DNA from: a virus
Taxonomy: Duplodnaviria > Heunggongvirae > Uroviricota > Caudoviricetes
Virus record (IMG/VR): IMGVR_UViG_643348551_000010
Reading direction: 5' to 3' (one strand)
Length of the DNA: 36,896 nucleotides
In this document: positions 1 to 36,896 of the stretch, piece after piece
Numbering within the stretch: position 1 is the stretch's first letter
Layout: each line of letters opens with the position of its first letter
The notes under the pieces: generated by a model
The model's input: the letters and a program-made list of their open reading frames with translations, nothing else
Told to the model about the DNA's origin: nothing
Database searches by the model: none
Position numbers and translations under genes: made by a program

Positions 1-726
1 TCACTTAGGGTATGGCTGAACCCTGAATAGCTTGGTATTTAGCCGCTTCCTTGCTCGCTTGTTCAGGAATCTGATGTAGCGATACTGATTAAATTTGTGC
101 ACCACGGCACGCTCTTTATTAGCCCGTAAATACACGCCTCGTTGTCCACCTCGCTTAATCGCGTTCATCGTTATCTCGTGATACCACTCACCATCCAGCT
201 CGTAGAACGTACTTTCATGACTGCCAATAAAATCAAAATTCGACGCCTGATACACAACGCCTGCGCGTCCGCAGCGTTCGTCAGCAAAGGACTGAACCCA
301 CTCCACTGACGGATACAGTAATCTGATAACTTTCAGCGCGTAGCTAATGGCCCGTGATTCAGAGTTGCGGGGCATGTCGTCGTGTAGCCACATGCGGTTC
401 AACTCCATATAGCCCCGGTTATCCGTTTCAAGCACGACACGACGACCTGAGTTGGGGTTAAGGGCATATCCCCACTGGAGAACGCCAACCAGATCGCGTC
501 CGCTGAATACCCCCAGGTGAAGGTAAGAGTTATTCACAAAACGGCGGGAATAGTGCTTTGTCTGAATAATTGTGCGGGCTAGCCAGCAGGATATGGTTTC
601 AACGCGCAGCTCCTTTGAACCATAGCCAACAATCTGGCCTTCATACTCAATAACGCACGGTTTCGTCAGAATGCGTGATTTCTTCTCTTTTCCCACAATG
701 TTTCTCCGTGGGATGCTCGCAGGCAT
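1..726 (-). CDS. mom: DNA modification protein Mom (anti-restriction adenine modification); start uncertain (ATG 724-726 or GTG 694-696)
   Basis: 241-aa ORF immediately downstream of and overlapping com, last gene before the phage right end, as in Mu. Stop codon is at 1-3, so the window begins at the mom stop. Confidence 0.85.
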
Positions 727-24758: not shown

Positions 24759-25049
24759 TCAGAAGCGGGGACGTGGACGTTTGACACCGGAAACACGAGC
24801 CCGGCCTTCAGCCACATCCTGACCACGGGAGGTCAGCGTCACGACATAAAAGCCGCGCAGGTTTTCCACGGTGACAAGCTGCTGTTCTGCCAGCCAGTCA
24901 ATCTGACCACGAACCACATCACGTGAAACGTTATGCCCGTAAGCATCCAGGCAATCCTGCAAAATGGATTCGTTAGCCTCGTTATTGCAGTCCATCAGTG
25001 AACGCAGGATGACCAGGCGGCGATCCTGCGTCAGAATGTCGTCAATCAT
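24759..25049 (-). CDS. Hypothetical late protein
   Basis: 96-aa ORF tightly packed between lysis and packaging genes. Confidence 0.55.
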   Translation of the reverse strand: MIDDILTQDRRLVILRSLMDCNNEANESILQDCLDAYGHNVSRDVVRGQIDWLAEQQLVTVENLRGFYVVTLTSRGQDVAEGRARVSGVKRPRPRF

Positions 25050-25345
25050 TTGTTGTTCTCTCCGAGCGCCTTTTCGAGCAAAAGCTCCAGTTGATGGGTC
25101 AGCACCTGTATGTGCCGGTTCATCGCTTTCACTTCACCATTGGTTTCTGCGGTTTGTAACCGGACAGCATGTAAATCCTGTGCACTGGGCATGTTTTCGC
25201 ACTTCGTTTCAAGCGCGGTTAAACGGCTTTCGATTTGCTCCACACGTTCCGTACTGGCAAATGTACGCCTCACCGCCCACCACAAAATGCCACCAATGGT
25301 GCTGCCACTGCCTATCGAGTAGGTCAGCACTGAATAAATATCCAC
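25046..25345 (-). CDS. Lysis accessory membrane protein (N-terminal TM helix plus coiled coil; spanin- or releasin-like)
   Basis: 99 aa, GTG start at 25343-25345 just after the lys stop; hydrophobic N-terminus followed by heptad-like region. Confidence 0.55.
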   Translation of the reverse strand: MDIYSVLTYSIGSGSTIGGILWWAVRRTFASTERVEQIESRLTALETKCENMPSAQDLHAVRLQTAETNGEVKAMNRHIQVLTHQLELLLEKALGENNK

Positions 25346-25357
25346 ACGCTCTCCTGT

Positions 25358-25786
25358 TTACAGCCCTGACGACATACCCGGCATTAATCCCGGCACCGGT
25401 AACACATCATCATTCAGCAGCTGATTATTACGGGGAGCGGGCACAGCACCAGAACCGGCGCTGAACATAAACACCGCCAGTGCATTTTTTTGCTCCTCTG
25501 TCAGTGGCCTGTTCAGATGGGTATTTAACGTGTCATAAACAGGCTTCAAATCTGCTTTCAACAGCATGATGCATTCACCATAGCTGTAAGGGCGTTGCTG
25601 AATATCAGGACCGTGATGGTTAAGGCAAACAGTCAGTTCGCCGTGCTGATCTGTGTATGGAAGGTACTGAACAGAAGCCAGCGATGAATCACCATCGCCG
25701 GACAACTGCCAGCCACCACATGCCGCCAGTACCACGATGGCAAGCGTTCTGATGATGCGGGGGAGACGTTTTTTAAAATCGTTCAT
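25358..25786 (-). CDS. lys: Endolysin with signal-anchor / lipobox-like N-terminus (lysozyme-like core)
   Basis: 142 aa, ATG 25784-25786 with AGGAGG SD; N-terminus MNDFKKRLPRIIRTLAIVVLAACGG; core motif LTVCLNHHGPDI resembles lysozyme-like endolysins; first gene after C, as in Mu. Confidence 0.65.
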   Translation of the reverse strand: MNDFKKRLPRIIRTLAIVVLAACGGWQLSGDGDSSLASVQYLPYTDQHGELTVCLNHHGPDIQQRPYSYGECIMLLKADLKPVYDTLNTHLNRPLTEEQKNALAVFMFSAGSGAVPAPRNNQLLNDDVLPVPGLMPGMSSGL

Positions 25787-25858
25787 GAAACCCTCCTTCG
25801 GTAATAAAAGGAGGGTAACTCAGGGGAATTTGCAGACGGGGTTATTATTAATTAACAC

Positions 25859-25876
25859 AACCGGCCTGCACCGGTT
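25859..25876 (-). terminator. Stem-loop just downstream of C (candidate end of middle transcript)
   Basis: aaccgg / cctgca / ccggtt hairpin 13-30 nt after the C stop, followed by AT-rich sequence. Confidence 0.35.
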
Positions 25877-25888
25877 GATTGCTGTTAC

Positions 25889-26299
25889 TCAGAATAAATC
25901 GGGCTGATGTCGCCGTGAATGAAGTTTTCTCTGCCGGGCAATAATCTTGTAAATCTGCGGTTGTGACAGACGATGTTCACGCCGCAGCTCCTCTATGTTC
26001 CGACCGTTAAACTGGCAGTAAATCAGATCATCCCGCAACGCTGCCAGAAGTGCATCACCCCGGGGGATGTAATACTGCCGCCCCCCCAGGAACCATGATA
26101 AGGACATCACCTGTTTACGGGCTATGCTCCGTGCATCATCCACGCCCTGACGTTTCAGTTCTGTTTCCAGAACGTCAACCAGCTCAACCAGCGCGCGGGG
26201 CCAGCGGGCCTCCTGCTCAGGAGCCGGTATATTGTCGATATGATCCATTAACTGGCTTACAGCCGGATCATGTTCAAATAAATCCTGCTGATTTGTCAT
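25889..26299 (-). CDS. C: Late transcription activator C (Mor/C family)
   Basis: 136 aa; shares the C-terminal motif FNGRN..EL with the mor product at 27659-28048; located immediately upstream of the lysis genes. Confidence 0.85.
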   Translation of the reverse strand: MTNQQDLFEHDPAVSQLMDHIDNIPAPEQEARWPRALVELVDVLETELKRQGVDDARSIARKQVMSLSWFLGGRQYYIPRGDALLAALRDDLIYCQFNGRNIEELRREHRLSQPQIYKIIARQRKLHSRRHQPDLF

Positions 26300-26309
26300 T
26301 TTGCCCCCA

Positions 26310-26435
26310 TCAGCGAAAAACTAACAGACAGATCCCCGTGACTACGGCAAGCAGTGCAATAACTGTGATACCCTTCATCACCATCAGCAACGTAGCCATG
26401 CCGGAACATTCATTACTGAATCTTCTGTACATCAT
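26310..26435 (-). CDS. Very small single-TM protein (41 aa)
   Basis: ATG 26433-26435 forms an ATGA overlap with the stop of the upstream membrane-protein gene; hydrophobic core ITVIALLAVVTGICLLVF. Confidence 0.5.
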   Translation of the reverse strand: MMYRRFSNECSGMATLLMVMKGITVIALLAVVTGICLLVFR

Positions 26436-26812
26436 GCCTCCGCGCCAGACGGTACTGAACGTCGCAGACAGATATGGAGGCGAAAGCAAAACCATATGCT
26501 ACAGAAGCCAGATAAAGCATAAATCGTGAACTGATGCGCTTCTTCTAAAAGCCCGGTTGCAATAGCCGAAAGACTTAACCCGACGAGGCCACCAAGAAAA
26601 TCAATGGCATTAATAGAAGCATAACGTCGGATTTTTCCTGTCCGGGACAGATCATCAAAAATAGTGCCGGTAAAGCACAGCGCCACACTGAAAACGGCAG
26701 CATTCCAGAACAGCAGCGCCCGCAAACCATAAAACAAGCTGATAATCAGAATCAGCGCCAGCAACATGACCGGCAGACAATTTGGTAACAAATAACAGAA
26801 ACGCTTAAACAT
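26432..26812 (-). CDS. Integral membrane protein (multiple predicted TM segments)
   Basis: 126 aa, ATG 26810-26812, several hydrophobic stretches; middle-operon position upstream of C. Confidence 0.6.
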   Translation of the reverse strand: MFKRFCYLLPNCLPVMLLALILIISLFYGLRALLFWNAAVFSVALCFTGTIFDDLSRTGKIRRYASINAIDFLGGLVGLSLSAIATGLLEEAHQFTIYALSGFCSIWFCFRLHICLRRSVPSGAEA

Positions 26813-27023
26813 GATGCTTTTCCCTGTAACGCTGGCAGTGGTGAATAATTTCTGGCATATCGACTGACTGCCAGCCTTTCATGTAATAGCTCCCGTGGGT
26901 GCCATCGTGCCCTGTGTAATCCATTGGCTTTGGTGGTGGACCTCCGGCCTCCCGATGCAACACCTCCTGTCGTAAACGTTCGCGTCTGCCAAACCGAAAG
27001 GACGCATCCCACCCTTTACCCAT
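26805..27023 (-). CDS. Hypothetical middle-operon protein
   Basis: 72 aa; ATG 27021-27023 overlaps the stop of the muramidase gene, SD gggagg 8 nt upstream. Confidence 0.6.
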   Translation of the reverse strand: MGKGWDASFRFGRRERLRQEVLHREAGGPPPKPMDYTGHDGTHGSYYMKGWQSVDMPEIIHHCQRYREKHHV

Positions 27024-27576
27024 GCAGAACCTCCCGGCAGGCGCTGGCGAGCAGATCCAGACGGTTAAACCAGCCGTTCAGATATTTCCCCTGCGAGGCA
27101 CTGGATTTGATAATCCCTGCGTAATAGCGGGAACGACGCAGGAAACACTGCAACAGCAGCCAGTCAGTATCGGCACGCAGTACGGCTGCGCGAGTGTTTT
27201 TGCCGACGATGCCATCATCATCAACACCTGCTGCCGCCTGGAGGATTTGAATTGCGCGTTTAACACCGTGCTGAACGGCAGCATCAAAGACGAATAAGGA
27301 AACACCATCAGGCCATTCGTTACACTTTGCCGCCAGCCAGTAATCACGCCAGTAGATTTGCGCCGCCTGCTCGTGGGTTAAATCTTTAATACGGGTATCA
27401 GGCTTCCCGTCACCGTTAACATCGGTTTTGCCATCAATAACGCCGTCGCGACGGTCAGAAATGCCGTATTTGGTTTCGCCGCCACGGTCAGTGGGATCAT
27501 TAACGTAACCACCTTCAACATCAGGCCGTATAACAAAATTCAGCGAATGAAGGAATGCAGGGGAAAACTCAGGCAT
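27016..27576 (-). CDS. GH108-family peptidoglycan hydrolase-like protein (predicted muramidase with C-terminal PG-binding-like region)
   Basis: Motif EGGYVNDPTDRGGETKYGI typical of the GH108 N-terminal domain; start set at ATG 27574-27576 with SD aggaggg (the track start at 27609 is a GTG). Confidence 0.7.
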   Translation of the reverse strand: MPEFSPAFLHSLNFVIRPDVEGGYVNDPTDRGGETKYGISDRRDGVIDGKTDVNGDGKPDTRIKDLTHEQAAQIYWRDYWLAAKCNEWPDGVSLFVFDAAVQHGVKRAIQILQAAAGVDDDGIVGKNTRAAVLRADTDWLLLQCFLRRSRYYAGIIKSSASQGKYLNGWFNRLDLLASACREVLHG

Positions 27577-27632
27577 GTTGCCCTCCTGTAATGAACGTTT
27601 TATCGTCACAACAGAATATTGAGGGCGTAAAA

Positions 27633-27653
27633 AAAGCCGGATTAACCGGCTTT
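27633..27653 (-). terminator. Rho-independent terminator immediately downstream of mor (early-transcript terminator)
   Basis: aaagccgg / attaa / ccggcttt: 8-bp stem followed by a T5 run on the sense (minus) strand, 6 nt after the mor stop. Confidence 0.7.
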
Positions 27654-27658
27654 ACTGT

Positions 27659-28048
27659 TTAAAACAGAGGGGGTTGATACTGACGATACTTTATACGCCG
27701 CATTCGTCGGATGGCTTTATAGACAGTGTTAAACGTCACACCATAACGAATTGCCAGTTCGTGAACATTGCGCCCGTTAAAATCATTCCAGATTCGTAAA
27801 TCCCGAACCAGTGAATCCAGCACCTGCCCACGAGGAATATAGACCTGACCACCGCCAAGATGTTTACAGATAGCCACAACAATCTCCAGAGAGTGCGCAG
27901 GTTCAACGCCCAGCCGGGACAGTTCCTGACGCAGCACATCGTTCAGTTCCGCCAGCAGTGCCGGAAATCGTGACGTATCCCCGGATTCATTGTCAAGATG
28001 AGCCAGGATACTGTCATCCTGAAAGTCGCCAAACAAATCCTGCGTCAT
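27659..28048 (-). CDS. mor: Middle operon regulator Mor
   Basis: 129 aa; ATG overlaps the gemA stop (ATGA); paralog of C. Confidence 0.9.
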   Translation of the reverse strand: MTQDLFGDFQDDSILAHLDNESGDTSRFPALLAELNDVLRQELSRLGVEPAHSLEIVVAICKHLGGGQVYIPRGQVLDSLVRDLRIWNDFNGRNVHELAIRYGVTFNTVYKAIRRMRRIKYRQYQPPLF

Positions 28049-28611
28049 TGTGCCAGTCTCCGTGTTTTTCTTGCACGGGCATAAGCTGCTGTCATGGCAT
28101 CATAGCCACGCAGTTCACGCCCGGACGGGCTGACCGGCAACGGGAGCCCATAATGGGAAAAGGCTTCACGGATACAGCGGATGTGCCACTGTTTCAGGGT
28201 TTCAAGCACAATTTGTAACGATTCTCCGTGACACCACGCCAGCGTGGAAACACCCTGTCCGCCATTACGTCTGGCTGTCAGTCGTTCGACGTATTTATCC
28301 AGTGCTGTATCACTGCCATCGGCAATAAAACCGTCTTCTGCCATTTGCTGCCAGATTTTTAATACCTTTTCGTGGGGCGTTACATGCCCATTAAAGCGAC
28401 GGCGTGGGTGTTTATTCTGCTTCTTAAAACCGCGTTCTTTCATGGCATCGAGCACCAGCTCCAGTTGCGCGACGGTCAGCTCACGGCAACTGATTTTGCC
28501 CGTGTTCTGCATCAGAAAGGCACGGTAGGTGTCGTCGTCGAGTTGTAGCTCCCGACGGGCGACATGGATTAATTTAATAAGCGATGTGCGATTCACTTGC
28601 TCACCTCTCAT
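28045..28611 (-). CDS. gemA: GemA (host gene expression modulation protein)
   Basis: 188 aa from ATG 28609-28611 (MRGEQVNRTS...); immediately upstream of mor, as in Mu. Confidence 0.8.
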   Translation of the reverse strand: MRGEQVNRTSLIKLIHVARRELQLDDDTYRAFLMQNTGKISCRELTVAQLELVLDAMKERGFKKQNKHPRRRFNGHVTPHEKVLKIWQQMAEDGFIADGSDTALDKYVERLTARRNGGQGVSTLAWCHGESLQIVLETLKQWHIRCIREAFSHYGLPLPVSPSGRELRGYDAMTAAYARARKTRRLAQ

Positions 28612-28626
28612 ATTAAGGAATGAGAT

Positions 28627-29043
28627 ATGAAAATTGATTATGACGAGATAGCCAGAATATTTGATGTATTCCTGGAGGCCGACACTGCATTCATTCGACT
28701 GGAAGATGTCGGCTGGGATCGTTCTCAGCGGCACAGCGACAGCCATCAGAAGCTGGTTTTCCATCTTCTGTTGCTGGTTGAAAATGGTTTTATCAGCAAC
28801 AGATATCTGGAAACAGGCACCGCAAAAAGCATTGGTCTCACCCCGACAAGCCTCGGATATTCATATTCAGGCACCAGTGTCAGACTCACACAAGATGGTC
28901 ATGATTTTGCGAAAGCACTACATCAAAAACCCATTCTTGAGCGTATAAAACAGGAGCTTGCCGACGCCCCGATGACGCTCGTAACAGACGTCGGCAAACA
29001 GTGGTTAACCTCGTTTCTTAAAAAGAAACTCGGGATTGAATAG
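28627..29043 (+). CDS. Hypothetical 138-aa protein encoded opposite to the early operon (candidate prophage-expressed accessory gene)
   Basis: ATG 28627 with SD aagga 7 nt upstream; fills a 393-nt interval with no minus-strand ORF; start codon only 15 nt from the divergent gemA start; 3' end converges on the next early gene. Confidence 0.6.
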   Translation: MKIDYDEIARIFDVFLEADTAFIRLEDVGWDRSQRHSDSHQKLVFHLLLLVENGFISNRYLETGTAKSIGLTPTSLGYSYSGTSVRLTQDGHDFAKALHQKPILERIKQELADAPMTLVTDVGKQWLTSFLKKKLGIE

Positions 29044-29316
29044 TTCCCGGTTCATACGTTGCAGCACATCAAGGGCGGCGACAGCCGCCACTTTATCGTT
29101 GCCATCAGCAATAGTGCGGAGATTTTCAATAATCCAGTGAGGACTCAGTGACTCAGCAACAATGCCCAGTCGGTACGCCATGACCTCATCAATAGCCTGT
29201 TCGTAAGACGGGGCATATACAAAGGCCACAAAGTCGTTGACCTCGTTTTCCGGTAAACCACCGGCAATCAGCAGGGCTGTAAGTTCTTCTGATTTTGTAA
29301 ATACGCCATTATTCAT
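29005..29316 (-). CDS. Small early protein (Mu gp15-position, tentative)
   Basis: 103 aa from ATG 29314-29316, coupled to the stop of the upstream gene at 29309-29311. Confidence 0.55.
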   Translation of the reverse strand: MNNGVFTKSEELTALLIAGGLPENEVNDFVAFVYAPSYEQAIDEVMAYRLGIVAESLSPHWIIENLRTIADGNDKVAAVAALDVLQRMNRELFNPEFLFKKRG

Positions 29317-29467
29317 TCTGTTCACCTTCACAATTCATGCACGCCGTGTCATCGCCCATATCGCAGTGGTTGCATTTCTGTCCGCCACAATGGGGACACT
29401 CTTTCAGATATTCAGGTGCTTCATTACCGCAGGTCGGGCATTCCTGCTTTTCGTTTACGTTATTCAT
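29309..29467 (-). CDS. Small Cys-rich zinc-ribbon protein; start could be further upstream (to 29521)
   Basis: CPTCGN...CPHCGG...CNHC...CMNC pattern; ATG 29465-29467 coupled to the upstream stop. Confidence 0.55.
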   Translation of the reverse strand: MNNVNEKQECPTCGNEAPEYLKECPHCGGQKCNHCDMGDDTACMNCEGEQNE

Positions 29468-29642
29468 TTCGTAATACTTCCTCGCAATAAAAAATCTCAT
29501 TGGGATAACGTTTTTGTACATGTTCCATCACCTGCCTGCATATCTGCTCCGTGGGCCAGATTCTTTCCGTTACAGGTATGGCATCGCAGGCATCATTCCC
29601 GCAGGTGCTAACCAGCAGGACAAAGCCAATTGACTTAATCAC
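29460..29642 (-). CDS. Small early protein (60 aa)
   Basis: GTG 29640-29642 preceded by strong SD (ggagg, 6-nt spacer); no in-frame ATG upstream. Confidence 0.5.
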   Translation of the reverse strand: MIKSIGFVLLVSTCGNDACDAIPVTERIWPTEQICRQVMEHVQKRYPNEIFYCEEVLRNE

Positions 29643-29871
29643 TATTTGCCTCCATATGTTCCAGACGCTGTGCTTCGCGCATACACATCTGCGCAATCAT
29701 CATCTGGCGGGCAATGCCTGCACGAATAAACGAAGCTGCACGACGGAGATTTTTTGCATTCGCCTGTTGAATCAATGCAGGTACTGATGCCAGGCATTCG
29801 GCGCTGTCTTTAATCAACACCTCCGCTGTTATTTCCGGTGCTTGTTGCTTATTCCTCGTCATCTTCGTCAT
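29635..29871 (-). CDS. Small early protein (78 aa)
   Basis: ATG 29869-29871; ORF packed between neighbouring early genes. Confidence 0.5.
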   Translation of the reverse strand: MTKMTRNKQQAPEITAEVLIKDSAECLASVPALIQQANAKNLRRAASFIRAGIARQMMIAQMCMREAQRLEHMEANSD

Positions 29872-30157
29872 CCTTTACATTCAGCGTTACAGGAAATTTT
29901 TCGAATATGAAAAGGGCAAGCCTTGCCCCAAGTCTCAGAAGGTTTGCTTCCTTTGAATGTGCAGGGATAACACATTTCTCACCGTCATTGTCGAAGGTAA
30001 TATCCGCATCTTTTTTATCGATAAAAAAACGACATTCATCCACGCGTGCTTTATGCCATGCACATAAAGAGACAATGCATTCTTTCATTTCCTGATTCGT
30101 CATAAATATCACCATTTCAGATTCAGGCGCGAGCAATTCCCTGACGCATCGCGCCAT
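29849..30157 (-). CDS. Small early protein with strongly acidic C-terminal tail (DDEDDEE); start uncertain
   Basis: 102-aa ORF directly downstream of gam; alternative ATGs at 30115 and 30103. Confidence 0.5.
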   Translation of the reverse strand: MARCVRELLAPESEMVIFMTNQEMKECIVSLCAWHKARVDECRFFIDKKDADITFDNDGEKCVIPAHSKEANLLRLGARLALFIFEKFPVTLNVKDDEDDEE

Positions 30158-30197
30158 AATTAAAAGAAAGTTAATTAATTAAATATTAATGCTGGTA

Positions 30198-30722
30198 TTA
30201 AATACCGGCTTCCTGTTCAAACGGGATAATGGAAAAATCTTCAATTCCAGACTTAACCGTAATTCCGGCAACACCGGCAACTGCGCCTGGTTCATTCAGA
30301 ATTGCTTCTTTGTTGATTTCCTGCTTCGTGCGAATAAAGCGTTGCAGGCCAAGACGCTCCAGCGTTTCCATCACTGCGTCCATACCACGAATGCTTACTG
30401 ATGGTGGACGGACCCGCCACGATACATCACCGGTGACAAGATTCGCCGTCTTCACTTTGCCGCCGTTCGTCAGTTCGTCGCGGTTCGCTTCACACCATCC
30501 CTGAACGCCTTTTGAAAGGGTTTCAATATCGGTTTTAAGCGGTGCAATCCGGGCCGCAAATTTCTCCGTAATTTCCGCGATGGCATCATTCATTTCTGTT
30601 TCCAGACGTGATGCTTCGCGCTGTAAATCCCCGATGCGTTTAATGTCGGTAATCACCGCATCGCGGTTTTGTGGCACATAAGCTGCCGCGGCACTTTTGA
30701 TGCGTTTTGCTGGTTTAGCCAT
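30198..30722 (-). CDS. gam: Gam, host-nuclease inhibitor / DNA-end-binding protein
   Basis: 174 aa starting MAKPAKRIK; size and position match Mu Gam. Confidence 0.8.
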   Translation of the reverse strand: MAKPAKRIKSAAAAYVPQNRDAVITDIKRIGDLQREASRLETEMNDAIAEITEKFAARIAPLKTDIETLSKGVQGWCEANRDELTNGGKVKTANLVTGDVSWRVRPPSVSIRGMDAVMETLERLGLQRFIRTKQEINKEAILNEPGAVAGVAGITVKSGIEDFSIIPFEQEAGI

Positions 30723-30741
30723 AAATTAAAGCTCCTGTTAA

Positions 30742-31029
30742 TTAATATCCGCTGTATACAATGCTGGATACAGCACGATTGCTTAATTCCATCTTTCGGG
30801 CAATGACATGAATATCCAGCCCTTCTTTATAAAGTTCACGACATAAATACTTGTCATGTTCACTGATTCGGTATACACACAATGATATTCCGTGTCTTCT
30901 GGCATGTGCCCGGAGGGCGGTTGTGGCGACTTTCAGTTTTTTCGCCATTTCTTCGACGGTCATTTTCCCGACGTTGGCTTCGATAAACTCCCGGTCTTTG
31001 CGTGACCAGCGCTTACGTATACACTTCAT
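30742..31029 (-). CDS. Small HTH-containing early protein
   Basis: ATG 31027-31029 with strong SD (ggagg); helix-turn-helix-like segment MTVEEMAKKLKVATTALRAHARRHGI. Confidence 0.55.
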   Translation of the reverse strand: MKCIRKRWSRKDREFIEANVGKMTVEEMAKKLKVATTALRAHARRHGISLCVYRISEHDKYLCRELYKEGLDIHVIARKMELSNRAVSSIVYSGY

Positions 31030-31041
31030 TCCGGCCTCCAC

Positions 31042-31461
31042 TCAGAACAACATGGGGTTGCGCAGTGATGCTGGAATATGCCGCAGCGATAACTGAACCG
31101 CTTTCAGGGCAAGCGAGGAATAACAGCAGTGCGCCCAGCCTTTTGCCATTAACCGGTAATCGCGCCAGATACGCTGCCACATTTCACGGGCTTCAGGGTC
31201 TGATGCGCAGATGTATTCCCGGTCCATAACGTACTCCCATAAATCCACGTTGAACGCACCGCCAAATGCAATGGCGCGGGATATACTTTCGCCGCAATAA
31301 CGCGCACAGATGCTGTAATGGTCGAAAGCAATCAGGTAAGTTTTTTCATCACAACCATCAACTTTCCGGGCGCAAATAAACTCGCGTAATTCACCACCGT
31401 TGTTATTGCGTTCCTGAATTCGGATTAATGCCTGAATTTCATTTCGGATTTTGACGTTCAT
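31042..31461 (-). CDS. Hypothetical early protein (139 aa)
   Basis: ATG 31459-31461 with aagga SD; semi-essential region. Confidence 0.55.
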   Translation of the reverse strand: MNVKIRNEIQALIRIQERNNNGGELREFICARKVDGCDEKTYLIAFDHYSICARYCGESISRAIAFGGAFNVDLWEYVMDREYICASDPEAREMWQRIWRDYRLMAKGWAHCCYSSLALKAVQLSLRHIPASLRNPMLF

Positions 31462-31481
31462 TGTCAGCGTTCCTTTGTGAA

Positions 31482-31751
31482 TTAATGTCTGGCTGCATTT
31501 GGGTTATAGCTGAATAGTTCCCCCTCAGCTTCCAGCCCAAGCTCCCTGGCTGATTTCAACAACTCCTCGGTCGCTTTTTTAATGATTTCAGGAGCCATAC
31601 TCTTGATGATGCCTGCCATTACGTCATGTGGCCCGGTCTGGTCCTCAGGTGAGGATTCTTCCAGTCGCACATTCATATTTACGGCAAAACCTCCATTTTC
31701 CTGAAACTCAATATTTTCTGTATTGTTAAACTCAAAGATTACTTTTGCCAT
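31482..31751 (-). CDS. Hypothetical early protein (89 aa); start uncertain
   Basis: ATG 31749-31751 placed just after the stop of the upstream gene; the track ORF extends to 31889 overlapping that gene. Confidence 0.45.
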   Translation of the reverse strand: MAKVIFEFNNTENIEFQENGGFAVNMNVRLEESSPEDQTGPHDVMAGIIKSMAPEIIKKATEELLKSARELGLEAEGELFSYNPNAARH

Positions 31752-31764
31752 TTTTATTGCCTGC

Positions 31765-31977
31765 TTATTGATTAACGGGCGTTGCATTTGTGATTTCGTT
31801 AAGTTCACAAAACACATTTTCTGCGTGATGATGGTTGCCGACATGAACAGCCAGTTTTCGACCATCAACAAATTCAAAAATAACATCACCGTTAACAGTT
31901 GATTCCATTACACTGACATTATCAAGGTTAATTAACCGACCAATTCCCAGACTATCGTGAATATTTATCACCATCAT
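31765..31977 (-). CDS. Hypothetical early protein (70 aa)
   Basis: ATG with ggaga SD 9 nt upstream; directly downstream of kil. Confidence 0.5.
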   Translation of the reverse strand: MMVINIHDSLGIGRLINLDNVSVMESTVNGDVIFEFVDGRKLAVHVGNHHHAENVFCELNEITNATPVNQ

Positions 31978-31984
31978 TTAAATG

Positions 31985-32212
31985 CTATCTCCAAATTATC
32001 TGACAACCATTAAATCGGGCCGTCCATACTGAACGGGCAATCCCTGATTTATGCTCCATAATTCTGATGGCGCTCCTGACCAGCTCCGGTGGTGGGCAGG
32101 TAATCTCAAGAATCGGGCGTGCAACACCGAGATATGACTCATTAACGTGGCTACCGCGTGCCTGTAACCATGTCTTTACTTCCGTTGCCATTTTGATATT
32201 CCGTGACATCAT
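31985..32212 (-). CDS. kil: Kil-like host-killing / cell-division inhibition protein (assignment by position)
   Basis: 75 aa from the tandem ATG at 32210-32212; first gene downstream of B, as in Mu. Confidence 0.6.
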
Positions 32213-32225
32213 GATTTCTCTCTCC

Positions 32226-33164
32226 TTACGTACGCAGCAGGGTTGAAATATCAACATCCAGGTCTAATTCACGGAAAGCCTGACGCAGATAATCTTCATT
32301 AACACGTTCACCTTTGCCGTGGGCAGTCATGGCAGCAAGGCGCAGCGAGTGGTTCAGGATACGAAGTGCACCTGGCTTTTGCGCAATCTGCTGTAATAAT
32401 TCCCGTTCGTTTTCGCCGGTAATTTGCCAGGCATCCGCAATGGCCTTTACATCATCAATTTTGGTTTTATTGATTGCCGTCCGTTTTGCAATACGGGAAA
32501 ACAGGCGGGCAAATTCAACCGTTCTGTTTCCGCCGGTCATATTTGAATAAACGCGGTGATTCCCCATCAGAACAAGACCAATACGGGCGGATTCCTGTAA
32601 CAGGCGGAGTTCTTCCAGAACTTCTGCGCCAAGATGATCAGCTTCGTCGATAATGACCAGCCCCTGTGTACCTTCGAGACGGCGTCTCAAAGCGCGGGAG
32701 AGTGGCCCTTTACGACGCGGTGCGTCATTCATTCCCAGTTCATAAGCCAGTTCAGTCAGGCATTCCAGAACACTGGCGCAGGATGGGGTAATGGTGATCA
32801 TCCAGACATTGTTATTGGTGCGACGAAATTCGCGGGCTGCTTCAGTTTTTCCCACACCTGGATTACCGCAGATAACAGAAATACTTTCAGTCAGGCTGGC
32901 AAAGCGCATACTCGTCCAGATTTGACGTGCTGTTCTGGTTTCCACAAAACGAGGGGGTTCTGGCAGTTCTGCGGCGCGGTGATAGTTCTCCAGCCAGCGT
33001 TCCAGCGTCTGCGCAACACGTTCATTATCGCCGTTGTACTTGTTATTCACGAACGCGCTTAACGTTCCTGCGGCAACTCCAGATTCGCGGGCGATTTGCG
33101 CATAAGTTGTTTTTTCGCTTTCAACAAGCGTGCGCAGTCCTGCGCGAATATCAGAAATATTCAT
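32226..33164 (-). CDS. B: Transposition ATPase / target DNA activator B
   Basis: 312 aa with Walker A GNPGVGKT; immediately downstream of the transposase. Confidence 0.95.
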
Positions 33165-33202
33165 CTGAATAACCTCGTAATTAAATTTTGTTTAAACGTT
33201 AA

Positions 33203-35200
33203 TTAAATGGCTTTTTTACGTCTGTTCTGTTCCAGAATATCCAGCGAATGATTCAGATATTCATCACGCTCAGTTTCGTATTCATCATCACGCTCCTGAT
33301 TCTTCACTCGTTCCGTATTACCGGAAGGCCGGAAAATGCCGACAATTTGTGATTCTGGTGCTTCAGGTTCGGCTATCTGCGGCAGCAGCTCTGCCACTTC
33401 CAGTGCATCCATTTGTTTCTGTGCCTTAATCGCTGCTTTCGTAGCAGATTTCAGTTGTTTCTGGCGGCGGCGATATTCACGGCCTGCCGCAGCATCATTA
33501 AACGCAACAGGTGCCAGACATTCCGCTTCACAGATAAACCGACCGTCAAGGGTGTAGCAATAAACCGTGCTGTGTAACTGCTGTGGATCAAATCTGACCA
33601 CAACTTTTTTTACTCCGGCATTCATTAACGCCATGTTGTAATAAACGTTTTTCGCACCTTTAAGGGAGCCACCAACTTTAAGCGCGAACTCGCCTTTACG
33701 TGAAACGTTCACTGCCTCGGCAGGCAGTAACAGCATCCGTTTTTGCTCTTCGGTAGGCTTACGCACAATCGTTCTGGCGTATTCACGCTCAAAAACGTCA
33801 TCAAACGAAAGTTTGCCTCCGCACATTTCTGTTTCACGGCCTGTTCTGGCATTGAACATCGCCACACCTTCGGCAAGGGTTTTCAGAAACAGCTCTGCAT
33901 CAACAGCGCGGTCGCCATAGTTATCAGGTTTTGCCTGCGGATTAGGCCCCGTATATGCGCCAGCCAGTGCCGGATGCTTATCAACGTATTCCTCAAGCCC
34001 ACCAACACCGAAAGCACGTTCAACAGGTTTTGCCTGGCCCCAGCCTTTACCGGCAACAACGCTTGTCCAGTGCATTTTCGCCCCCATCAGTAAAAACAGT
34101 CCTTTTGGATCGTCCTCTTTTACCTTAAAGCGGTAGCGATTGGGCGCGCCTCCCGTCAGCCATTTATTCGCAGCACCACGGGTGTTATCAATGGTGATGT
34201 GAAAATCCTCCGGGATACCGTAGCGAGTCACAACATCCATGAACGAGAGGCGAATTGAATCAATGTTCTCGCTCACATCGCAGCGCCAGCCCAGAATTTT
34301 TCGGGTTTTCACATCCTGCCAGAACCATGTTTTCGGACGGATCACATCACCGTTAAACCAGCGTACAAAGACGTTATGCAGATAACCGTCGCCGTTGATC
34401 CACTGCATGGCGTCCAGGTGTTCCACAGTTCGCTGCTGTGCCGGTATCAGATGCATCAGTGCATGTTCACCTTCACGGCAGGCAACAACCATTGCCTCGT
34501 CCAGTTGCTGAATCCGGCGAAAGGCCGTGGCACGGGAGGGAATACTCCAGCCATGCTCGCGGGCTGCCAGTTCCAGACGCTCATAACATTTGCGGAAGGC
34601 GGGTTTTTCCGGTCGCAGATAATCTGCAATCAGAAACTGCCAGGCATCCTCGTCAAATTCACTTTTGTGAACGTTGCGACGGGATGCACCACGTCCATCA
34701 ACAAGCGCAGCCGCCCAGTCAGGCTTCGCAAACTTCTGTACCTGGTAATACTTGTCCCGCAAAGTGGATGCGCTGACCTGGTAATGCCCTGCAACGGTCG
34801 CAAAAGCCGTTTTTGTTGAAATCCCCTGGTTCAGCATTTCGTCTGCAGCCTGAACCGCAGGCAACCATTTTTCAGCAAGTCTGCGCTGGGAATCGCTGGC
34901 GTTATCCCATTTGCTCCACAGTGCCTCACGATCATAATCATGGGCTTCCAGCGTGGGGCGGGCGATTTCAAAATACCCCTGGCTTGTTTCTATTTGCTCA
35001 GATTTTAATAACAACTCAGCACGTGCTGCCGCTGGTAGAACTGATATATGAAATTCCAAAGCCTTTGAACCCGTACGCTTGCGACGTAGTTCTGGATGAT
35101 TGGCTGCAAGCTTTTCAAGATTGCGGCGAATACTCACCTCATGTTTAGGAAAGCATGACATTCCTACGCATTCTTGCGCTGTTACCCAATGGGTTAACAT
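33203..35200 (-). CDS. A: DDE transposase A (MuA family); N-terminal DNA-binding domain appears divergent from canonical Mu (D108-like)
   Basis: 665 aa from ATG 35198-35200 (MLTHWV...), overlapping the ner stop; the track start at 35230 is a TTG. Confidence 0.95.
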
Positions 35201-35421
35201 GATGTTTTCTCCATATACCGAGAAGGCCAAATCTGGGCTGGTTCCATATCCAAATATCTAGCAATGATTGCTTCGTATCGTGGTATATGGCAGCGAAATA
35301 CGTTACGCATAGTGTCAGGCTTTAAGCCTGCCTCTCTGGATAATTGAGATAGTGTCTTCCCCTTCATACGAACAGCAGCCTTTATCTGCTCTGCGTGCCA
35401 GTCTTGGTTTTTTGCTGACAT
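35194..35421 (-). CDS. ner: Ner-like early transcriptional regulator (DNA-binding)
   Basis: 75 aa from ATG 35419-35421 with aagga SD; conserved DWH motif; sequence appears to differ from canonical Mu Ner, as expected for a D108-like immunity type. Confidence 0.85.
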
Positions 35422-35590
35422 TCTGCGATCCTTACTCACTTAACGTTTTCGGTAACTGATACCGGCTACCGCTATCGGGAAAAACGATAGCGCAGAAAAA
35501 TGCGCATTTCAAGAGCTGTGCGCATTTTTATTTTAACAAATGCAAATCAAAGCATTCTGTAAAATTTTTTATATAACAGAGAGATTTAAC
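35422..35590. promoter_or_regulatory. Divergent early / repressor promoter-operator region between ner and c
   Basis: Perfect 8-bp inverted repeat cgctatcg-N7-cgatagcg at 35470-35492; direct repeats TGCGCATTT at 35501-35509 and 35519-35527; AT-rich tatata upstream of c. Confidence 0.6.
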
Positions 35591-36199
35591 ATGACAGGCG
35601 AAAAAGAAAGCAAAAATGCAGAGCGCATTTTTATGCCCTCGGAAATAATGCGTTTCAAGGAACGCCTTGAAGAGGCAATGAATGGAGAATCAAGCCGGGC
35701 GTTTGCAGCTAAGTGCGGACTTTCTGATGGGGTTATCAGAAACTACCTGTCTGGCAAGACATACCCGTCTTTAGATCGATTAGCACAAATAGCCTACGCA
35801 ACAGGGCGTCCAATAGAGTGGTTTATCCAAAGTCAGAGCATGCCAATGGTTGAGCATAAAAATGCTCGAGAGAATAAAAATCCTCAACCTGACCGCAGCA
35901 CATTGAAAACTAAACTGATCGCAATTGTCGAATTGTTAGAGGACAAGGAACTGCATTCTGCGATTGAGTTGTTCAGAAAGAAAGGATTTGAAGCTCTTAT
36001 GCCTGAGATTTTTTCTTCCGATGATTCCATCCAGGCTGATTTGCAAGGTATTTCGCAGCAAACCTTACAAACAGCCAAAATGCTTGAATCATTACCAACA
36101 GATACCCGTAAAGAGATTTTGTCAAAGTATGGTATTTATGAACAGGAATGTCTTGTAGCTCCTTCACAAGAACCACAAGATGTAAAAAAAGCCGTATAA
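35591..36199 (+). CDS. c: Prophage repressor c (lysogeny maintenance); N-terminal DNA-binding domain appears to differ from Mu c (from memory)
   Basis: Only long leftward gene at the phage left end; C-terminus ...SKYGIYEQECLVAPSQEPQDVKKAV resembles the Mu repressor C-terminus; start set at ATG 35591, alternative at 35540. Confidence 0.85.
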   Translation: MTGEKESKNAERIFMPSEIMRFKERLEEAMNGESSRAFAAKCGLSDGVIRNYLSGKTYPSLDRLAQIAYATGRPIEWFIQSQSMPMVEHKNARENKNPQPDRSTLKTKLIAIVELLEDKELHSAIELFRKKGFEALMPEIFSSDDSIQADLQGISQQTLQTAKMLESLPTDTRKEILSKYGIYEQECLVAPSQEPQDVKKAV

Positions 36200-36365
36200 C
36201 AACCATGAACCAGCTAAAACATACTTCACCTCACATAATCACACATGTAACATACCTAAACGGCATGAGCTGATTTGTGATATGAGTCATTTGGTTACAG
36301 CCTGGTTGTTATCGGTTTTGAACGTTTTTTGAAGCTGTTATTGAAATGATTTGCAGTGTTTTTGT

Positions 36366-36537
36366 TTTTCGTATTTTCAATGAAACAAAAGCAATTTTTT
36401 ACTATCTTTCGCGTTTCATTGATTAACGACTAAAATTTGCGCTACAGGCTTGCAAGCCCCACCAAATCTAATCCCATCAGATCCCGAATAATCCAATGTC
36501 CTCCCGGTTTTTTTCGTACTTCAAGTGAATCAATACA
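36366..36537. repeat. Phage left end (attL) with three transposase-binding sites L1-L3
   Basis: Matches to the MuA end-site consensus at 36511-36532, 36406-36427 and 36366-36387 (TTTTCG...TGAA..CA type on this strand); terminus caataca at 36531-36537. Confidence 0.8.
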
Positions 36538-36896
36538 ATCGGGATCACCAATGGAAGCTCTTTATAGCCCGCATCAAGATGGTTTTGCATTGCCGCAATG
36601 GAATAACGCATCATGCGAAAAGCCATTAATTCTTCCGGCTTACTTTGGTGCTCTATCACTACATAAATATAACCCACTCCCTCCTGCGTTTTCACAGACC
36701 ACAAGAGGTCGGAATAATATTGCCGCAGGTCGTCATCAATAAAACTGTTTGGTTCCAGTTTAAGCGTCGTTAAATCACACAGTTTGCGCAGCGGCGCGGG
36801 AAGATGAATATCAATAAAATCCCGCGCGGTGTCTGGATGGCGTAAAAAAGATTTAAATACCGCATCATGCGGCGTGGAAGTTGTCGATATTGTCAT
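36538..36896 (-). pseudogene. Host rpn-family (YhgA-like, PD-(D/E)XK recombination-promoting nuclease) gene, 5' portion only, disrupted by prophage insertion
   Basis: ORF starts [33 protein letters not shown]...IEHQS (Rpn-like N-terminus), reads for about 119 codons, then continues 20 codons into the phage end before stopping at 36477. Confidence 0.7.

Follow-up and report, generated by a model that had tools for sequence, protein, structure and literature searches.

A Mu-like prophage, PP_SE11-7, lies inside the chromosomal gene rpnB (also called yfcI) of E. coli SE11, and a short ORF that joins the 5' part of the gene to the phage end has been created at the junction. The window analyzed here (the whole stretch of 36,896 nucleotides) maps to about 2,660,386-2,697,281 of the SE11 chromosome (AP009240.1) and contains nearly all of this prophage together with the 5' part of rpnB. 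We consider it almost certain that the prophage arrived by Mu-type transposition into codon 119/120 of rpnB, that the site was hit by chance, that RpnB was disrupted in the process, and that the fusion ORF is a by-product of the event. The insertion as such is already known, and it is an ordinary Mu insertion that was published for SE11 in 2008. Table 2 of the SE11 genome paper (Oshima et al. 2008, DNA Res 15:375, PMC2608844) lists PP_SE11-7 as a Mu-like element of 36.7 kb at 2,660,266-2,696,947, located in yfcI and accompanied by a 5-nt duplication. It is the same object as the prophage in the window: the start coordinate agrees, whereas the published end lies 20 bp beyond the duplication that we mapped (2,696,927). 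That paper predates the naming and the functional study of the Rpn proteins, and neither the fusion ORF nor the split between toxin and antitoxin is discussed in it.

The initial annotation, which was made from the letters of the window, had described a prophage inside a host rpn-family gene and a truncated fusion ORF that begins with a typical Rpn (YhgA-like) N-terminus, runs across the phage terminus and ends 20 codons inside the phage. All of these points are borne out, and the gene can now be named as rpnB, with the junction at 36537/36538. The ORF is present on the minus strand at 36477-36896 and encodes a product of 139 aa. This product matched the Pfam family Transposase_31 (YhgA-like; PF04754) with an E-value of 3.2e-56, its residues 8-124 being aligned to profile positions 1-118 of 203, and it scored 105 bits against the NCBIfam Rpn subfamily TIGR01784, for which the cut-off is 52.1. 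At the nucleotide level, positions 36538-36896 (minus strand) are 100% identical to the first 359 nt of rpnB as annotated in many complete E. coli genomes, that is, to codons 1-119 and the first two bases of codon 120. The identity to the host gene breaks off exactly at 36538, base 1 of phage Mu (AF083977) aligns to 36537, and codon 120 (AT|T) is cut by the junction. Thus, the ORF covers RpnB residues 1-119 and then 20 codons that belong to the Mu left end, where it meets a stop. Upstream of the truncated gene (rpnB') lie hisJQMP, the same as in other strains. An assembly artefact was ruled out, because the identical rpnB junction was found in the independent sequencing run DRR354993. We also observed an ORF of 101 aa on the plus strand (36437-36742) that spans the junction antisense to rpnB, and this was treated as a chance ORF. 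The window ends at 36896 with the start codon of rpnB' and starts at the stop codon of mom (1-726, minus strand), so that it was apparently trimmed at gene boundaries, with the right end of the phage falling 115 bp outside.

The rest of the gene and a 5-bp target duplication had been predicted to lie beyond the right end of the phage, and both were found there when the SE11 flank past the window start (locus L013, retrieved by look-up with the Mom protein) was inspected. In this flank, the Mu right end ...CGCCGCTTCA terminates 115 bp beyond the window start; read at greater length it is ...TTTTCGTGCGCCGCTTCA, and rpnB resumes immediately after it, with CCGATGCTGTTTTATCATGG... as its next letters. 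The 3' fragment is a frame of 181 codons that carries the remainder of Transposase_31 and the HTH_Rpn_C domain. The pentamer CCGAT adjoins both phage ends in SE11. Its left copy, at 36538-36542 (minus strand), reads CCGAT in the sense direction of rpnB and ATCGG on the plus strand of the window, and its second copy precedes base 1 of the window, at -119 to -115 in the same numbering (L013 6842-6846); on AP009240.1 the two copies were mapped at 2,696,923-2,696,927 and 2,660,266-2,660,270. The uninterrupted allele reads GGTGATC-CCGAT-GCTG, with a single CCGAT. The length of the prophage is 36,652 bp, and deleting it together with one CCGAT in silico restored an rpnB of 300 codons, the protein product of which scored 188.5 bits against TIGR01784. 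A comparison with uninterrupted alleles had been suggested in the initial annotation. The rebuilt gene with 150 nt of flanking sequence on each side aligned as a single piece, at 100% identity over 1203 nt, with many E. coli genomes. Given that the empty site and its flanks are identical to intact alleles, the insertion is, as far as these alignments indicate, precise and recent enough for no other change to have arisen in the rpnB region.

The prophage body occupies positions 1-36537 of the window in reverse orientation (minus strand), its last 115 bp lying before base 1. The Mu-type left end (attL) is at 36300-36537 on the minus strand, with the terminal 5'-TG at 36537-36536. The left end sequence from 36537 is 5'-TGTATTGATTCAC..., and the minus strand read from this position (TGTATTGATTCACTTGAAGTACGAAAAAAACC...) is 97% identical to Mu bases 1-428. 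The element therefore has 5'-TG...CA-3' ends with candidate MuA end-binding sites at the left end: the 22-bp MuA end-site consensus gave two exact matches, at 36511-36532 and 36366-36387, where 0.29 would be expected by chance. We take the first of these to be L1 and the second to occupy the L3 position, with the consensus and the names being those of the Mu literature. Inward from the left end lies the repressor gene c (35540-36199, plus strand; longest ORF 219 aa, called as 202 aa), which is transcribed toward the left end and is convergent with the fusion ORF. A Ner-like early regulator with an HTH_35 domain follows at 35194-35439 (minus strand), and then a MuA-type DDE transposase at 33203-35230 (minus strand; called as 665 aa, longest ORF 675 aa), which matched the Pfam profiles DDE_2 (2e-136), HTH_Tnp_Mu_1, HTH_Tnp_Mu_2 and Mu-transpos_C. 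The gene adjoining the transposase encodes a MuB-type ATPase (Phage-MuB_C), and the order past the transposase is MuB, Kil, Gam, GemA and Mor, followed by the late genes, Gin, Com and Mom. Judging from these matches, the main genes and both ends of PP_SE11-7 look intact.

Next, we considered whether rpnB was a preferred target. In Mu transposition, a MuA tetramer assembles on the end-binding sites and strand transfer takes place into a target captured by MuB; the strands are cut with a 5-bp stagger, which after repair leaves a 5-bp duplication, and the target preference is weak (N-Y-(G/C)-R-N). The duplicated CCGAT conforms to this pattern. Prophages that encode an identical Mom protein were found at ten loci, which represent nine different host sites, including flagellar genes, lptF/G and a position near gyrB. 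Among the flanking pentamers, eight of nine fitted N-Y-(G/C)-R-N, for which the chance expectation is one in eight. When 5,426 complete E. coli genomes were surveyed, 43 proved to carry Mu-type left ends, in a variety of places, and the rpnB junction was found in none of the 5,426. Another case concerns E. coli N1286 (L014 2538-2966), in which the same phage type lies inside agaC with a left end and immunity region that are 99.5% identical to those of SE11; agaC is annotated there as a pseudogene missing its N-terminus, which makes it a second natural gene disruption by the PP_SE11-7 phage type. Site-specific or preferred integration into rpn genes was rejected in view of the nine unrelated sites, the agaC insertion in N1286 and the lack of the rpnB junction in any other complete genome. 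From the varied sites of related prophages and the count of zero in 5,426 genomes, we infer that the rpnB site looks like a chance Mu hit and not a site preference.

On this basis, the following course of events would account for the locus. Transposition by MuA and MuB would have carried the Mu-family phage into the chromosomal rpnB of SE11 at codon 119/120, the choice of site being essentially random within the limits of the weak Mu target consensus. A staggered 5-bp cut of the target and its subsequent repair would have produced the duplicated CCGAT. The 5' fragment of the gene would then read 20 codons into the left end before reaching a stop, giving the 139-aa ORF, and the 3' fragment (codons 120-300) would have been moved past the right end, to a distance of about 36.7 kb. 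The full-length RpnB nuclease would be disrupted by these events, and the fusion ORF would be a by-product without a selected function. Mu ('mutator') owes its name to this very ability to disrupt genes by integrating at random. In this respect the insertion matters little, since it is a Mu-typical disruption that was tabulated in 2008. What can be added comes from the biology described after that year: yfcI encodes a toxic nuclease with an internal antitoxin, and its family has been linked to phage defence.

Studies of the Rpn proteins allow the consequence for the host gene to be considered. The activity of RpnA needs D11, D63, E82 and Q84, and substitutions of R94 change it as well; furthermore, a second, non-core part of Transposase_31 that contains a PDDEI motif is functionally relevant in RpnA, and RpnD without its last 45 residues has strongly reduced activity (Kingston 2017, PMC5350276). 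The fusion ORF keeps the PD-(D/E)XK core residues D11, D63, E82, Q84 and R94 (all five were checked), and it ends its RpnB part before residue 120, so that PDDEI (residue 163) and the C-terminal tail are gone. PDDEI and HTH_Rpn_C sit in the separate 3' fragment (codons 120-300) beyond the prophage. In other words, a complete Transposase_31 domain, PDDEI and the C-terminal tail do not occur in one polypeptide in the fusion ORF. The interrupted gene is rpnB itself, with the PD-(D/E)XK core, PDDEI, the HTH_Rpn_C tail and the internal RpnB_S start; in SE11 this gene is split by 36.7 kb of phage DNA, so that no full-length RpnB can be made. We infer from this arrangement that RpnB function has most likely been lost and that the SE11 locus is to be read as a disrupted rpnB, not as a functional member of the Rpn family. 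For annotation, the frames of 139 and 181 aa should be labelled together as a single pseudogene in two parts. When the rebuilt RpnB was searched against solved structures, the matches were spurious ones to designed repeat proteins, no individual stretch passed, and the nuclease domain was not matched.

The antitoxin part of the gene has to be considered separately. It has been reported that full-length RpnB (RpnB_L) is toxic and that RpnB_S, which is translated on a short transcript of its own from a start inside the gene, blocks RpnB_L specifically; a short internal transcript was reported for all rpn genes (Zhong 2023, PMC10400941). With the D29 landmark of that study, Met244 was identified as the first residue of RpnB_S, 372 nt past the insertion point; in the 3' fragment of SE11 the frame that begins there is uninterrupted. 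SE11 therefore probably lacks the RpnB_L toxin and may keep the RpnB_S antitoxin. A consensus promoter scan of the RpnB_S strand in SE11, a weak test, found no promoter upstream of RpnB_S; both there and around the left junction the counts were within the shuffle expectation, and the scans were uninformative. Going by its sequence, SE11 would be a naturally occurring rpnB_L-null strain in which the rpnB_S frame is preserved, and it could serve as a comparison strain in studies of Rpn.

These properties raise the question of whether the insertion has had an effect beyond the loss of a gene. It could be imagined that it uncouples an intragenic toxin-antitoxin module with antiphage activity, such that RpnB_L is lost, RpnB_S is perhaps still made from an internal promoter of its own and an N-terminal nuclease fragment is possibly produced without regulation. 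That such an uncoupling has been selected or has a measurable effect is very unlikely in our judgement. The identity of the gene is the one thing that speaks for it. If there were such an effect, for example on phage sensitivity or recombination in SE11, the locus would show, in a natural setting, how a temperate phage disarms a host defence gene by integration. The more specific proposal, that the insertion was selected because splitting rpnB disables the RpnB_L nuclease of the Rpn toxin-antitoxin antiphage system while RpnB_S stays intact, to the benefit of the phage or the lysogen, draws on the toxicity of RpnB_L, its specific block by RpnB_S, the short internal transcripts and the protection against some phages by a plasmid-encoded Rpn, RpnP2 (PMC10400941). 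The RpnB_S frame, intact from Met244 onward past the insertion point, is also consistent with it. However, the antiphage activity was shown for RpnP2 and not for the chromosomal RpnB. No PADLOC model matches RpnB, so the 2023 paper (PMC10400941) is the one source for the link to defence. Mu integration is almost random, related prophages lie at nine unrelated sites, and the rpnB junction is in no other genome among the 5,426 complete ones; the scan upstream of RpnB_S, albeit a weak test, also gave no sign of a promoter. Taken together, selection for this insertion seems extremely improbable, and we prefer the transposition of PP_SE11-7 into a site hit by chance.

The least probable of the readings considered is that the 139-aa fusion is an active, deregulated nuclease fragment, in which the PD-(D/E)XK core has been kept and the C-terminal part required for inhibition by RpnB_S has gone. 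In its favor, none of the five residues on which RpnA activity depends is missing, and the gene has kept its native promoter region and start codon, with 150 nt of upstream sequence identical to that of intact alleles. Against this, Transposase_31 is reduced to profile positions 1-118 of 203 and the conserved second segment with PDDEI, a segment relevant in RpnA, has been lost, and the removal of a much shorter part, the last 45 residues, is already enough to make RpnD strongly less active (PMC5350276). Selection would probably also act against a constitutively toxic fragment, and nevertheless both of the independent data sets show an undamaged frame. Since the five core residues defined in RpnA are kept, the fragment could possibly have some residual activity. 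We prefer the view that the fusion ORF is a by-product of a chance Mu insertion.

We also compared PP_SE11-7 with Mu and D108, which are transposable Muvirus phages. It resembles both in its ends, end-binding sites, MuA and MuB, gene order, Gin/G segment and Com/Mom, and in the 5-bp duplication at an N-Y-(G/C)-R-N site, and its late region is about 94% identical to theirs. D108 and Mu aligned with 92-94% of window positions 1-25000, at about 94% identity, and alignments at about 92% identity covered half of positions 25001-36537. The immunity region is unlike those of Mu and D108 in the N-terminal half of the repressor, in ner and in the N-terminus of the transposase; this divergent stretch corresponds to positions 35200-36100 (N-terminal half of c, operator region, ner and the 5' end of A). 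The N-terminal HTH_3 domain of the repressor is 46% identical to repressors of Pseudomonas transposable phages, whereas its C-terminal half is 53-56% identical to Mu c. A search for near-identity to phage records gave coverage limited to the last 428-472 nt beside the left end, and among 5,426 complete E. coli genomes the immunity region was shared by one, that of N1286. In Mu, the repressor and the transposase have a homologous DNA-binding domain in common. The repressor and transposase of PP_SE11-7, unlike those of Mu, seem not to share such a domain, because HTH_Tnp_Mu_1 is retained in the transposase and the domain in the repressor is HTH_3.

The region from mor to the lysis genes, at about 24999-27610, showed no near match to Mu or D108. 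It contains an endolysin gene with Glyco_hydro_108 and PG_binding_3 domains (27016-27609, minus strand), a late-activator C-like gene (25889-26299, minus strand) and small ORFs with no assigned function, and it looks like an exchanged cassette for lysis and late regulation. In addition, an ORF of 138 aa lies just upstream of gemA, at 28627-29043 on the plus strand, and runs against an early operon whose other genes all point one way. This ORF matched phrog_585 (E=2e-31), to which no function is assigned there, and had no match in Pfam, NCBIfam or PADLOC; it could be an accessory 'moron' gene.

Finally, two further observations were made on rpnB in other strains. In E. coli isolate AB66 (NZ_OZ547461.1; L015 404-1101), a copy of IS1A separates hisP from rpnB; the rpnB of 300 codons that begins shortly after it is otherwise identical. 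This is another mobile-element insertion at the rpnB locus, and it may affect the expression of rpnB. The RpnB proteins of SE11 (300 aa) and E2865 (296 aa) differ by an indel of 4 aa, with GRNDGLILGKRE in the former and GAMQGKHE in the latter, which begins 11 residues after the RpnB_S start (L013 7214-7390 compared with L003). The indel sits where variation of a four-residue repeat has been described (Zhong et al. 2023, PMC10400941).
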